Shown here in pieces: positions 52,653-56,291 of a DNA stretch of 64,000 nucleotides; positions within the stretch are counted from its first letter, which is position 1, and each line of letters begins with the position of its first letter. Source of the stretch: Eubacteriales bacterium (lineage in GTDB: Bacteria > Bacillota > Clostridia > Oscillospirales > CAG-272); NCBI GenBank assembly GCA_045660185.1, contig JAZRDI010000101.1:17723-81722 (forward strand), read 5' to 3'. The notes beneath the pieces were generated by a model. The model worked only from the letters and a program-made list of their open reading frames with translations, had not been told where the DNA came from and did no database searches. A program made the translations under genes and the position numbers.

Positions 52653-55600
52653 ATGAAAACGCTCAAAGAAAAGATATTATCCTTATGGCGTAAATTAGTG
52701 AATGCTATGAAAAAACCGCGTGTAGCAATAGCAACACTTTCATCTGCCTTTGTTCTTATAGCGGCAGTAGCTATAGCGCCGTCAGTTGCGCGATATGTGT
52801 CAACGGTTATAGCATACTTTAACGATAACGGTGAGGAAAAGGAGTATATGGACTTTACCGTCAACACGGTGTTCGTCGTTGACGACCAGAACGACCTTTT
52901 TGCTGCAATCAACCAAGGATATTCATACATACAGATTTCCGGAGATTTGCATAATCCGTTGGTTATCACTCAGTCCCCAAAAAACCTTACTACAGACCTT
53001 ATCATTGACCTAAACGGTGAAGAACTTTACCGCCACGGAACCGAGCCTATCTTTGAAATAGACGAAGGTGTTCGTCTTACTATTACGGACACTTCGGAAG
53101 ATCAGACAGGAACCCTTTATAATCCCACGGGGTCGGTGCTTAAGATTGACGGCGGAAACTTGACGGTCGTTTCGGGAAAATTCGAGTGCGGCCCCAGATA
53201 CTCGGAATACTACACCTATAACAATAACATCCTTTCCGAACGTTCTCATAAGCGTACCATAGTGGCTGATGAGCCCGAAAAGGTTGATCTTTATATTAGA
53301 CAAGGAAGCGGAGAAAGTGCTACCTTCACGCATTATACCGAAGTCACTGTGCCGATTATAACGGCGTACAACGATTTGTCTTTAGGTTTAGACCATCCTC
53401 ACGGAAACGTATATTTTGATTGGACCGTACAAGTCGGCTCCGAAAAAGATGAGTCTAAAAACTTTAAAATCCCGGCTGACACCTATTGCTTTTACACAAC
53501 CGACCAGGATGATTCTTATGAAGTTATGAAAATGACGGCTTATAAAGCCGATTGGTACTATACTTATCACGTAAAGCATGATACCTTCGAATATGTTGCA
53601 ACGCCTGACGAGAATTCGATAGAAGTAACCGTTTACGGCTATGAAAACACTATTGAAAACGCCGAGACCCGAGCCGACCCTGACGATATAGATGCGCCGT
53701 CTAACAATTTCTTTGCCGCAATAAAAATGTACGGCGGAGTATTTGATATACTTTACGGTGACTTCTACAACTACTTCGGTGTAAACACTACCGCCTGTGT
53801 TGATATGATGGGCGGAGAGCTTATCATAAAAGAAGGAAACTTCTCGACCCGTGTTCCAAACGCTTCTTCACATACTCACCATGCTGTTGACGCAAAGGAG
53901 AGTGACGCTGAAGCATTTGACCCATTTGACTATTTCAATGATTTCTTTTGGGGGAAAACAAACTTTGGAACAAGCGACCCCGATTATGAATTTTATGAAG
54001 ACGGTATTCGCGCTCAAAAGGGCGAAGGATACGGAATTCTTACAAGTGGCGATGCCAAGATAACAATAGGTAACGGAAACTTCTATTCATCGAATAACAA
54101 CCTCATTCACATGCAGGACGGAACCCTCGATATCGGCGGCGGTGAATTCTATAAGACGATTACGAAGCACTTGGGTGAATATGCGCATAACGATACCGCT
54201 ATATTTATGCACGATGGCGACTTGAATATAGGAAATGCAAATTATACGATTTACGGTGACTATGCAAGAGCTATTCGAATGATTGACGGAAAGCTCAACA
54301 TAAACGGCGCGTCTTGTATTATTCAAGGCGACTATGCATACGCTGTATATTCAACTATCCCCGGTGATAATCTTACACTTACCGATATTAAGTTTGATAT
54401 GTACGCAAGAACCTCTGTCGGTAGACTGACAGGTATATATTCCACTGCAAACGAGAACGGTGAAAGCGGTACCGTTGCGGTAAGAACCTCGGAGGGCGGT
54501 GAGTCGTACATCAATATTCAAGGTCACGGCTCTGTCGGAGTGTACGTAGATGGCGGTGACGTTTACAGCCAGGGCTGCGAATATACGATAGAAGGTAACG
54601 AATCCGCGGGAATATATGCAAATGAAGGAAAGGTTAAAATTGACGGCGGACACATTGACCTTGTCAGCAACATTAACTGCTACGGAATCTACGCTATAAC
54701 CAGAAATGAAGACGTAGAGGTGCAGATTGACGTTACTAATGCTCATATTGACGTTGGATACGTCGATAGCTCAACTCCGCCCACAACGGTTCATACGGAC
54801 TGCAAAGCGTGTATCGGAGTTTTCCTCGGATCTGCTAACCCAAACAGTCACGTAACGTTAAACAACTCAAACGTTCATTCCTACGAGATAGGCCTTGCGC
54901 TTTCAGGCGGTAACCTTCTCGTTCGTGACTCGGACTCAACTCCGAATAATATTAAAACAAACCGCGGCTCTGCGGTTGCCGTATCAAACGGAGACCTCGT
55001 ATTCGCAGAGGGCGGAACGTACGAGCTTACCTCGTTTAATACTACTCAGGGAAATTATCAGAACTCGTATGAAATGACCGTTCCGTATCTTAAAGAAACT
55101 AACGGCCAATACGAGATCGTAGCGGTAACCTACGATAATACTGACGGAATTTACGTCAATGGTGGCTCATTCACCTCTCACGGTAATTTGAAAATGGTCC
55201 ATACCGGACTTCAGAATCAGCTTCACTATTACGACGAAAGAGGAAATGAGCTGACCTATGTTTATAATTCTCTTGTTGTAACAAGCTATGCCGTTCGAGT
55301 CGTTGGTGGTAACGTAAATATAACAAAAGCTAACATCACGAACCATTCGGGAGGCGGAATATGCTGCTCCGGTGACGGAACGATAACTCTCGGTAACGAA
55401 AACACGGTTCAAAATGACATAATAGTTCTTGCTGCAGGCGAGGATTACGTTGAATATGAAAACGGAGAACATAACGGTACGTATAATTCCGTTGGAACGT
55501 ATGTTTCAGACGGATGGCAGAGCCAAAAGAGTATTACAGGCGGTCATGCAATAGAGCTCAACGGCGGAGATATTATAGTTTACGGTGGAAGCTATACCGC

Positions 55601-56291
55601 GAACTTCGGTAACGGTATCGCCGCAAACAGCCACGGAACTATTACGGTTTATAACGGATTCTTTGACGGTAAAATGACTACGTCATACGCAAATAACAAC
55701 TTGTTCTATAAGCACTCGGGACCTGCGGCATACTACGGACTTAAGGTTATCGGTGGTGCTAACGTAATTATTTATAACGGCACGTTTGACGGCGGTAACG
55801 GCGGCGCGTTCGTAACCGGAATAGACAGATTTGTCAGCGTTGACGATTACGGAAGCACTACGGGCAAAAAAGCAAACGTTCTTGTTTATGCGGGAACCTT
55901 TGGTACGGGTAAAAACCTCGACTCCTTTAACGTTTACGACTATTCAACGGTTGTATTTGGCGCAGCTGCAAGAGGAACCTATACGACTGCCAATCAGCAC
56001 AAAAATGCAATAACGATGAGAGCCGTGAACGCTTCGATAGCTACAAACAAGCTCACGAACGGAGAGGGAAACACAGCTCTTAGTAAGTCATCGGATGTCT
56101 TTATTTACTATGGTAACTATTATAAAACCAATAATAATAACCAGACACCCGAGCCCGGTGGTATTTGGAACGATAATGCGACTATCACAATCTATAACCG
56201 AGACCTCGGTTACGTAACCTACGCTGATGTTGGTGGAGGCTCACCCGAAAAATTTGAAGATGAGCCAAACGGTGTGTATTACGGAGAATAG
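52653..56291 (+). CDS. giant secreted repeat protein (predicted beta-solenoid adhesin) with a SipW-type signal
   Basis: 1212 aa. Signal ...APSVARYVSTVIAYFND. At least 14 copies of a G-[GD]-x-[LV]-x-[IV]-x2-G-x-[FY]-like repeat (for example IDGGNLTVVSGKFE, MQDGTLDIGGGEFY, LNGGDIIVYGGSYT). Confidence 0.6.
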   Translation: MKTLKEKILSLWRKLVNAMKKPRVAIATLSSAFVLIAAVAIAPSVARYVSTVIAYFNDNGEEKEYMDFTVNTVFVVDDQNDLFAAINQGYSYIQISGDLHNPLVITQSPKNLTTDLIIDLNGEELYRHGTEPIFEIDEGVRLTITDTSEDQTGTLYNPTGSVLKIDGGNLTVVSGKFECGPRYSEYYTYNNNILSERSHKRTIVADEPEKVDLYIRQGSGESATFTHYTEVTVPIITAYNDLSLGLDHPHGNVYFDWTVQVGSEKDESKNFKIPADTYCFYTTDQDDSYEVMKMTAYKADWYYTYHVKHDTFEYVATPDENSIEVTVYGYENTIENAETRADPDDIDAPSNNFFAAIKMYGGVFDILYGDFYNYFGVNTTACVDMMGGELIIKEGNFSTRVPNASSHTHHAVDAKESDAEAFDPFDYFNDFFWGKTNFGTSDPDYEFYEDGIRAQKGEGYGILTSGDAKITIGNGNFYSSNNNLIHMQDGTLDIGGGEFYKTITKHLGEYAHNDTAIFMHDGDLNIGNANYTIYGDYARAIRMIDGKLNINGASCIIQGDYAYAVYSTIPGDNLTLTDIKFDMYARTSVGRLTGIYSTANENGESGTVAVRTSEGGESYINIQGHGSVGVYVDGGDVYSQGCEYTIEGNESAGIYANEGKVKIDGGHIDLVSNINCYGIYAITRNEDVEVQIDVTNAHIDVGYVDSSTPPTTVHTDCKACIGVFLGSANPNSHVTLNNSNVHSYEIGLALSGGNLLVRDSDSTPNNIKTNRGSAVAVSNGDLVFAEGGTYELTSFNTTQGNYQNSYEMTVPYLKETNGQYEIVAVTYDNTDGIYVNGGSFTSHGNLKMVHTGLQNQLHYYDERGNELTYVYNSLVVTSYAVRVVGGNVNITKANITNHSGGGICCSGDGTITLGNENTVQNDIIVLAAGEDYVEYENGEHNGTYNSVGTYVSDGWQSQKSITGGHAIELNGGDIIVYGGSYTANFGNGIAANSHGTITVYNGFFDGKMTTSYANNNLFYKHSGPAAYYGLKVIGGANVIIYNGTFDGGNGGAFVTGIDRFVSVDDYGSTTGKKANVLVYAGTFGTGKNLDSFNVYDYSTVVFGAAARGTYTTANQHKNAITMRAVNASIATNKLTNGEGNTALSKSSDVFIYYGNYYKTNNNNQTPEPGGIWNDNATITIYNRDLGYVTYADVGGGSPEKFEDEPNGVYYGE

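Follow-up and report, generated by a model that had tools for sequence, protein, structure and literature searches.

A stretch of 64,000 nucleotides (hereafter the window) from an Eubacteriales bacterium assigned to the Clostridia (Oscillospirales, CAG-272; contig JAZRDI010000101.1, positions 17,723 to 81,722 of the forward strand) contains a co-directional cluster of eight genes, the last of which encodes a protein of 1212 amino acids (aa) that we refer to here as BIG. We found that BIG represents a coherent family without annotation, that it is predicted to form a right-handed beta-helix, and that it has in common with three other products of the cluster an N-terminal signal of a particular class, encoded beside two SipW-type signal peptidases with intact motifs. 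The locus is a conserved, self-contained eight-gene cassette for secretion and assembly, in which Pfam and NCBIfam recognise only the two peptidases and PHROG does not recognise BIG. We propose, as a reading of the whole that is plausible rather than probable, that BIG would be a SipW-processed terminal adhesin of low abundance, belonging to a new fibre system and docked through its N-terminal segment.

The BIG family and its conservation

The BIG open reading frame (ORF; 52653-56291, plus strand) is real and is preceded by a strong ribosome-binding site, and its coordinates and length are those given in an earlier note on this DNA, which had been drawn up without database searches. The seven peptides quoted there were all found in the protein, at residues 45, 165, 385, 519, 657, 883 and 1032, and the Gly/Asn/Thr/Tyr-rich composition that it described was borne out (G 11.1%, T 9.0%, N 8.9% and Y 7.5%). 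Homologues of BIG were identified among 1.84 billion cluster representatives, with 546, 303 and 233 representatives retrieved at E ≤ 1e-3, 1e-10 and 1e-30, respectively. The family is coherent and unannotated, its members are about 1000-1900 aa long, and its carriers are throughout uncultured gut Clostridia, represented by Christensenellaceae-like metagenome-assembled genomes. The most conserved stretch, residues 97-196 (identity to the reference 0.58-0.67), contains the majority of those polar residues that are invariant (DLNG, R, D-T-S, YNP and FE-GPRYSEYY), and the invariant residues of the N-terminal module include D119, N121, R127, D146 and D276 (protein numbering). A second well-conserved stretch was found at residues 947-1096, and the last 115 residues or so are variable. 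In the central and C-terminal rungs of the predicted rod, the invariant positions are nearly all Gly.

The sole hydrophobic segment of BIG is N-terminal (residues 22-54), and none of the anchors that had been reported as missing (LPXTG, S-layer homology, choline-binding and C-terminal transmembrane (TM) helix) was found by motif, hydropathy or Pfam/NCBIfam. The C-terminus is without the LPXTG motif of sortase-anchored surface proteins, and the highest Kyte-Doolittle value reached by any 19-residue window within the final 200 residues is 0.90. Pfam and NCBIfam searches with all eight operon proteins gave matches only to the two peptidases and left BIG without a domain; neither a cell-wall anchor nor an enzymatic domain, either of which the earlier note would have taken as an explanation of the protein independent of the locus, was detected in this way, and Pfam yielded zero domains in six longer homologues. 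As regards type V autotransporters, no Pfam autotransporter domain was found and the C-terminal rungs of BIG are followed by no further domain. BIG had zero matches in PHROG, and no relatives of it were present on 2.9 million viral contigs (IMG/VR). A phage origin was rejected on these two grounds, and neither a family model nor a phage association places BIG among the beta-helix carbohydrate-active enzymes or phage depolymerases.

Repeat units and predicted fold of BIG

At least 14 degenerate repeats had previously been described in BIG. The repeat is real and lies far above chance, but it is far looser than the consensus given for it: the strict pattern G[GD]x[LV]x[IV]xxGx[FY] has 2 matches in BIG, against 0.00 in shuffled sequences, and a relaxed [GD]G-x-h-x-h core has 9, against 0.67. 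A hidden Markov model (HMM) of the coil unit detected 10 clear and 6 weak units, compared with approximately none in 200 shuffles; eight of the 10 clear units were the seeds of the model, and a leave-one-out procedure recovered each seed from the other seven (scores 7.9-25.9). The repeat unit is 22-26 residues long and comprises three short strands.

An AlphaFold2 model of residues 47-1212, computed from a 68-sequence alignment, had a predicted local distance difference test (pLDDT) value of 89.8 and a predicted template modelling score of 0.84, with 47% strand, 6.6% helix and a periodic pattern of short strands, from which the rod may be roughly estimated at 25 rungs. In Foldseek searches of the PDB and BFVD with this model, no match reached E<1e-3 and the template modelling scores (TM-scores) were low; the lack of a significant global match is to be expected, because the model is a 1166-residue rod. 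The top PDB matches were all right-handed beta-helices (Klebsiella phage depolymerases, Fap2, K1 lyase, GH110, Vag8, pertactin, Hap, HxuA and AlgE4), and the top BFVD matches were tailspikes, pectate-lyase-superfamily proteins and NosD-like proteins (best probability 0.96, TM-score 0.46). Furthermore, the BIG family profile matched the Fap2 passenger (9qe7) with E=8e-7 over profile positions 468-731, and gave repeated sub-threshold matches along the Fap2 rod. The beta-solenoid call of the earlier note, for which structure prediction and a Foldseek search had been recommended, is upheld by the confident solenoid model, by the nature of the top matches and by the profile match to Fap2, and a right-handed beta-helix is supported as the predicted fold class of BIG.

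Conservation of the BIG operon

Operon conservation was assessed in 83 related loci, of which GTDB species representatives supplied 80. The source organisms are without exception uncultured Clostridia of the gut or rumen, and many bear the label Christensenellaceae, Borkfalkia, Coproplasma or Gallimonas. The gene order X271-SipW1-A300-TM287-B244-SipW2-M630-BIG recurs in about 50 species. The linkage counts were made on the 56 loci whose upstream flank measures 6 kb or more: a SipW-type peptidase was found in 55 and two peptidases in 52, and M630 lies directly upstream of BIG in 47, with a 4-nt overlap of stop and start codons in 11. Both peptidases have intact boxes: Ser (TESMEP), His (THRV) and Asp (GDNN) in SipW1, with TM segments at residues 10-45 and 148-184, and Ser (TGSMES), His (THRI) and Asp (GDAN) in SipW2, also with two TM segments.

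A300 and B244 are full-length paralogues (hhalign 99.9%), and TM287 is related to both over its beta-sandwich domain (hhalign 98%). The AlphaFold2 model of B244 is a beta-sandwich (pLDDT 79.7, core >90) in which residues 27-39, after the signal helix, are disordered. In TM287, a TM helix is present at the N-terminus in 26/26 and at the C-terminus in 25/26 of the close homologues. TM287 has no cleavage site and retains two TM helices, which would imply that the others are meant for release. A hairpin with an energy of -20 kcal/mol or below is found after B244 in 69%, after A300 in 48% and after BIG, at the operon end, in 41% of homologues, but in only 0-10% after SipW1, SipW2, TM287 and M630. 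This pattern suggests that A300 and B244 may be abundant structural subunits accompanied by minor components. Sequence searches of the PDB with B244, with the B244 profile and with the M630 profile yielded nothing. Rfam, which covers riboswitches such as those for cyclic di-GMP, found no family in the leader or in the operon, and riboswitch control of the operon was rejected on that basis.

Some variants and minor features of the operon were also recorded. In one locus (L001, 394-2631), a SipW1-type peptidase is fused through an Ala/Pro/Glu/Val-rich linker to the C-terminal domain of X271, in a single protein of 745 aa; this fusion links X271 to SipW1, and the positive-inside rule would place the X271 domain in the cytoplasm. 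Three loci (L036, L039 and L043) have an alternative order, with a B244-type subunit and a SipW2-type peptidase after BIG instead of before it. Antisense ORFs at 47252-48055 (minus strand, 267 aa) and 49053-49766 (minus strand, 237 aa) cover almost exactly the same stretches as A300 and B244 and are in all likelihood shadow ORFs of these rather than real genes.

A class of signal common to four operon proteins

A300, B244, M630 and BIG carry a signal of one class, in which a hydrophobic helix is followed by T/S at position -3, an aromatic residue or Leu at -2, A/S/G at -1, R/K at +1, Y/F at +2, V/T/I at +3 and S/T at +4. The motif is nearly invariant in these four families (93-100% of the homologues of each; counts in Table 1) and occurs in 0/33 TM287 and 0/23 X271 sequences. 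On both strands of the whole window, it is present in exactly four ORFs, all of them in the BIG operon. The site conforms to the -3/-1 rule of type I signal peptidases, and BIG is probably cleaved after Ala46 by a SipW-type peptidase of the operon.

The relationship of this signal to that of TasA is less direct. With hhalign, the TYAKY of the class site is placed on the T-W-A/A-F of TasA, non-significantly, and [VTI]-[ST] stands in place of the -x-D that comes next in the TasA class; the S-V-A/R-Y of BIG agrees with the core that we used for TasA-type signals, T-aromatic-A / x-[F/Y]. TIGR04088 gave zero matches, even at E<=10, with the N-terminal 58-72 residues of BIG, A300, B244 and M630, whereas the positive control, B. 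subtilis TasA, scored 38 bits against a cutoff of 19. TIGR04087, TIGR04089 and TIGR04090 returned nothing relevant with the same four N-termini (E<=10), the nearest being a TapA match of B244 with 13 bits against a cutoff of 80. We read the class site as a putative new variant of the SipW-cognate signal, T-x-[ASG]/[RK]-Y.

The SipW-type signal proposed for BIG in the earlier note is thus retained in part: two intact peptidases are encoded beside four proteins with the class signal, but the motif is not AYFND and does not belong to the TIGR04088 class. The A-Y-F-N-D string had been considered a canonical hallmark of TasA-type substrates, a view that we abandon. The string is present but unconserved, and TIGR04088 is blind to the N-terminus of BIG; across 120 homologues the string drifts to APF, VPF or AKF, and it is gone in the distant half of the family. 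We also rejected it as a second or true cleavage site, since this would need a 13-residue c-region containing Arg, the string is not conserved, and the other three substrates are without it.

Two further observations concern sites of this type. A sub-motif, [AV]x[FWY]x[DGNE], lies 5-16 residues past the class site of BIG in 18/25 loci with a B244-type subunit versus 0/30 without one, a difference that is confounded by phylogeny; it may reflect co-evolution of the BIG N-terminus with that subunit or mere shared ancestry. SipW2-type peptidases have A-R-Y after their own first TM helix in 17/72 cases (e.g. LVARYAFGEG), resembling the class site of the substrates, which could be due to chance or to self- or cross-processing between the two peptidases.

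The small proteins and the TasA question

No match to PF12389, NF046066 or TIGR04090 was obtained with A300, B244, TM287 or M630, and PF12389 was found in 0/74 members of the B244 family at E<=1. In hhalign comparisons, the B244-family profile had a probability of 3% against a 37-sequence TasA alignment and of 1% against a single TasA sequence. Foldseek searches with B244 returned generic beta-sandwiches and proteins resembling carbohydrate-binding modules (CBMs), and TasA was not in the top 50; in the PDB, AbpA (7ueg), a TasA-like subunit of archaeal bundling pili that uses donor strands, had the highest probability (0.92), although its E-value was 4e-3 and its TM-scores were 0.30/0.37. That the BIG operon works like the TasA/TapA system is a reasonable hypothesis, whereas its identification as a TasA system is not supported.

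The TasA donor strand, which completes the next subunit, immediately follows the site of SipW cleavage (PMC9674648, PMC10151520). TapA has only its N-terminal segment in common with TasA and donates it to start the fibre, and it cannot sit within the filament, its own fold being complete; it has been described as a factor in anchoring and assembly that is associated with the membrane or wall (PMC9674648, PMC10151520). In the sipW-bsaA-bsaB-bsaC operon of C. perfringens, two donor-strand matrix proteins are followed by a large accessory protein encoded last, and for BsaA a model has been proposed in which growth is membrane-proximal and SipW cleaves after strand exchange (PMC11580942).

The N-terminus of BIG aligned with A300, B244 and M630 (hhalign probabilities 93, 82 and 73%, respectively) only from residues 18/20/34 to 53/55, and M630 and BIG match the other operon families only over the signal and about nine further residues. 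Residues 47-49 and 66-76 (MDFTVNTVFVV) of BIG are conserved. BIG thus resembles TapA in having only the signal and the post-cleavage segment in common with the subunits, joined to a body that is not that of a subunit.

Proposed role of BIG and alternative explanations

In the mechanism that we favour, BIG would be exported by Sec, cleaved after Ala46 by one of the two SipW-type peptidases and, in its mature form, would fold into a long right-handed beta-helix rod. A300 and B244 would be the abundant products and would polymerise by strand donation, and the flexible N-terminal segment of BIG would dock on one end of the polymer and cap it, like the strand donation of TapA to TasA. BIG most likely docks by this segment because it has no subunit-like body and no wall or membrane anchor, and because only its signal and first residues are in common with the small subunits. 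TM287 would act as an acceptor-only base in the membrane and M630, which is often translationally coupled to BIG, as an adaptor. Growth of the fibre at the membrane would carry the donor-only BIG to the distal tip, where the rod would be presented as an adhesin. The attachment through a fibre system and the role as a tip or adhesin that the earlier note envisaged are consistent with everything that we found. The gene and its family, the linkage of the operon, the class signal, the intact motifs of the peptidases and the fold class are results; processing at Ala46, assembly of the small subunits into a polymer, strand donation by BIG, its place at the tip and its adhesive role are inferred.

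The most detailed form of this proposal is more doubtful. It describes a hitherto unrecognised, sortase-independent fibre in Christensenellales-like Clostridia of the gut, in which A300 and B244 polymerise on a TM287 base and are processed at the new class site by the two ER-type peptidases, and BIG serves as a donor-only initiator and ends as a distal tip adhesin joined via M630. Within it, and with the same reserve, the tip formed by BIG might be some 12-15 nm long, and the whole might be seen as a Gram-positive counterpart of the chaperone-usher tip architecture, made of parts unrelated to TasA in sequence.

Several points weigh against BIG as a docked terminal adhesin. Residues 50-65, immediately after R-Y-V, are variable, contrary to what a conserved donor strand would ideally show, and the invariant polar residues of the N-terminal module could serve catalysis or ligand binding instead of docking. 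TIGR04088, TIGR04089 and TIGR04090 miss the signal, so that the designation of BIG as a putative SipW substrate depends on gene neighbourhood and motif logic. Against the polymerisation proposed for A300 and B244 stand the absent TasA/camelysin match, the 3% profile-profile probability and the low TM-score with AbpA. Finally, the model does not account for the presence of two peptidases.

Among the alternatives, it is unlikely, although less so than the others, that there is no fibre at all and that the locus encodes four independent exported proteins with a special signal that requires dedicated peptidases, BIG being either tethered to the membrane by an uncleaved signal-anchor, with its rod projecting across the wall, or released. 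Such an arrangement would accommodate the findings that the small proteins have no detectable homology to TasA, BsaA or camelysin, that the B244 fold search yielded only generic beta-sandwich or CBM-like matches, and that the sole hydrophobic segment of BIG is N-terminal. However, the class site agrees with the -3/-1 rule, is almost unchanged across four families and is encoded beside two intact peptidases, which argues for cleavage, and TM287 specifically is without this site and keeps its two TM helices. The hairpin pattern also suggests a bulk structural product with minor components, and the post-signal residues are common to otherwise unrelated proteins.

An enzymatic role is considered improbable; BIG would then be a beta-helix polysaccharide lyase, hydrolase or epimerase, secreted or at the surface, with host mucin, dietary glycan or the matrix of the cell itself as its substrate, and would simply be co-expressed and co-processed with the other proteins. 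Families of such enzymes are usually detectable, whereas there was no Pfam or NCBIfam match to BIG or to six longer homologues, no PHROG match to BIG, and no relative of BIG on viral contigs. The best Foldseek matches do include capsule depolymerases, K1 lyase, GH110, fucoidan lyase, PL6 alginate lyases, AlgE4 and NosD-like proteins; however, the only sequence-level relative with a structure is the adhesin Fap2. Similarly, the most conserved region of BIG is the N-terminal module with invariant Asp, Asn and Arg, and the hosts are gut anaerobes, but the invariant positions of the rod are nearly all Gly and the length polymorphism by insertion of rungs is typical of stalks.

An equally improbable alternative places BIG at the end of the fibre near the cell, as a nucleator or anchor like TapA, with the rod as a spacer or wall-binding element: the evidence on strand donation applies equally to it and TapA provides a precedent at the membrane or wall (PMC9674648, PMC10151520), but growth at the membrane as proposed for BsaA would move an initiator outwards (PMC11580942), TM287, membrane-anchored at both ends, is better suited as the base, and BIG has no wall-binding domain or TM anchor.

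If the model of a fibre with BIG at its tip is true, the donor-strand principle of SipW/TasA would also hold for a family that is unrelated in sequence and has a true tip adhesin, genomes could be searched for further substrates with the new signal-peptide class T-x-[ASG]/[RK]-Y, and concrete adhesin candidates would be available for colonisation studies of Christensenellaceae-like Clostridia. These bacteria are widespread in human and animal guts and almost wholly uncultured, and to our knowledge little is known about their attachment to surfaces, partner microbes or the host. If the model fails, the locus would still provide a new beta-helix family and a clear instance of two dedicated signal peptidases in one operon.

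Comparison with known systems

The closest parallel may be TapA (YqxM) of the B. subtilis tapA-sipW-tasA operon, which has a SipW-type peptidase in the operon, a signal and short segment in common with the beta-sandwich subunit, a non-subunit body and low abundance. However, TapA is an immunoglobulin-like protein of 253 aa, whereas BIG has 1212 aa, a predicted beta-helix and no TIGR04087 match; the signal classes also differ (T-x-A/[RK]-Y in the BIG operon and T-W-A/A-F-x-D in the TasA class), and strand donation is established for TapA and putative for BIG. BsaC of C. perfringens resembles BIG in being a large secreted accessory protein of Clostridia, encoded last after SipW and two small donor-strand proteins (PMC11580942). 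In that operon, BsaA and BsaB are recognisable relatives of TasA (TIGR04090), which is not the case for the small proteins of the BIG operon, and there is one peptidase rather than two and no gene like TM287 or M630.

Autotransporter and two-partner secretion (TPS) adhesins (Fap2, pertactin, Hap, Vag8 and HxuA) have, as is predicted for BIG, a long right-handed beta-helix rod with degenerate Gly-rich rungs of about 22-25 residues. BIG differs from them in the absence of a C-terminal beta-barrel translocator, a TPS domain and Pfam autotransporter or PMP repeats, in its host, which belongs to the Bacillota (Firmicutes), and in its N-terminal class signal, encoded beside signal peptidases of the endoplasmic reticulum (ER) type. 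The phage tailspike depolymerases and the pectate-lyase superfamily resemble BIG in fold class and supplied the best-ranked Foldseek matches (7vul, 7w1d and BFVD tailspikes), but BIG is chromosomal and lies within an operon, and these matches have non-significant E-values and low TM-scores. The tip adhesins of sortase and chaperone-usher pili (SpaC, FimH and PapG) would be comparable in the role proposed here, as large adhesive end proteins encoded in a pilus operon and present below the level of the major subunit; BIG, however, has no LPXTG/sortase signal or pilin domain, and its operon has no usher or chaperone. Our literature search found no paper linking SipW to Christensenellaceae or describing a SipW-associated beta-helix protein. 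The BIG operon is best classed as a SipW-associated secreted-protein cassette, distinct by its signal class, its TasA-unrelated subunits, its two peptidases, a membrane-anchored subunit paralogue and a giant beta-helix protein.

Features of the BIG operon and its surroundings

Table 1. Features of the BIG operon and of the BIG protein (positions in the window)
Feature	Position	Strand	Basis
Promoter-like site, TTGACA-17-TATAAT with extended TG, upstream of the first operon gene	45395..45423	+	Sigma-70-type pattern match, 12/12 consensus positions, best in a 12-kb scan
X271, with TM helix at the N-terminus, linker rich in Pro, Glu and Ala, and conserved C-terminal domain without known function	45517..46332	+	First gene in 23 loci; no family match
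SipW1, ER/archaeal-type signal peptidase I	46325..47038	+	TIGR02228 E=1.7e-30, 106 bits against a cutoff of 51.85
A300, small subunit candidate, class signal TFA/KY	47138..48040	+	Motif 65/65; paralogue of B244
TM287, paralogue of the small subunits without cleavage motif, candidate membrane anchor or platform	48090..48953	+	hhalign, TM prediction
B244, beta-sandwich small subunit candidate, class signal TYA/KY	49014..49748	+	Motif 29/31; AlphaFold2 model
GC-rich hairpin of 15 bp directly 3' of B244, candidate attenuator or mRNA stabiliser	49779..49812	+	-28.2 kcal/mol
SipW2, second ER/archaeal-type signal peptidase I	49917..50579	+	TIGR02228 E=3.6e-22, 78.9 bits against a cutoff of 51.85
M630, medium-sized, class signal SLA/KY, upstream neighbour of BIG	50669..52561	+	Motif 58/61; no family or PDB relative
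BIG ribosome-binding site	52639..52646	+	AAAGGAGG, 6-nt spacer to ATG; read from the sequence
BIG signal peptide, residues 1-46: basic n-region, hydrophobic helix 22-43, Pro43, S-V-A	52653..52790	+	Hydropathy; hhalign to the A300, B244 and M630 signals
Class site S44-V45-A46 / R47-Y48-V49-S50, predicted cleavage after A46	52782..52802	+	Conserved in 74/77 BIG homologues
BIG mature N-terminal segment, residues 47-76, candidate donor or docking strand	52791..52880	+	pLDDT 45-63, against >85 afterwards; column entropies
BIG A54-Y-F-N-D58 string	52812..52826	+	Among 72 unique N-termini of the family, only 35% have A at +8 and only 21% have F at +10
BIG N-terminal conserved module, residues ~77-400, first rungs and inserted mixed domain	52881..53852	+	Conservation, secondary structure; approximate boundaries
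BIG central beta-helix rungs, residues ~455-800	54015..55052	+	HMM units 457-482, 481-502, 512-535, 535-559, 624-649, 648-670; DSSP; approximate boundaries
BIG length-variation hot-spot, residues 547-596	54291..54440	+	Homologues average 72 extra residues; explains most of the family length range of 1100-1600 aa
BIG C-terminal beta-helix rungs, residues ~876-1212, no anchor motif	55278..56288	+	HMM units 877-899, 961-985; weak units 995, 1034, 1148

Three regions outside the operon were also noted. Four tandem paralogous ORFs of 236-295 aa and low GC content (0.31) are located at 60138-63376 (minus strand); their N-terminal regions of about 45 residues are near-identical and end in a lipobox-like L-T-[GS]-C, the bodies diverge, and the C-terminal KLDFEKNKIY[IV]PF is common to them. 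Co-directional ORFs at 29790-39634 (minus strand), with low GC content (0.32-0.36 around 32-38 kb), resemble by eye a surface-polysaccharide cluster, with an N-terminus like that of NAD-dependent sugar dehydratases, multi-TM proteins like Wzx/Wzy, and proteins like glycosyltransferases and initiating sugar transferases. A bacterial RNase P RNA of class A (16575-16952, minus strand; 238.9 bits) is the sole Rfam family above the gathering score in the window, and it fits a chromosomal context.

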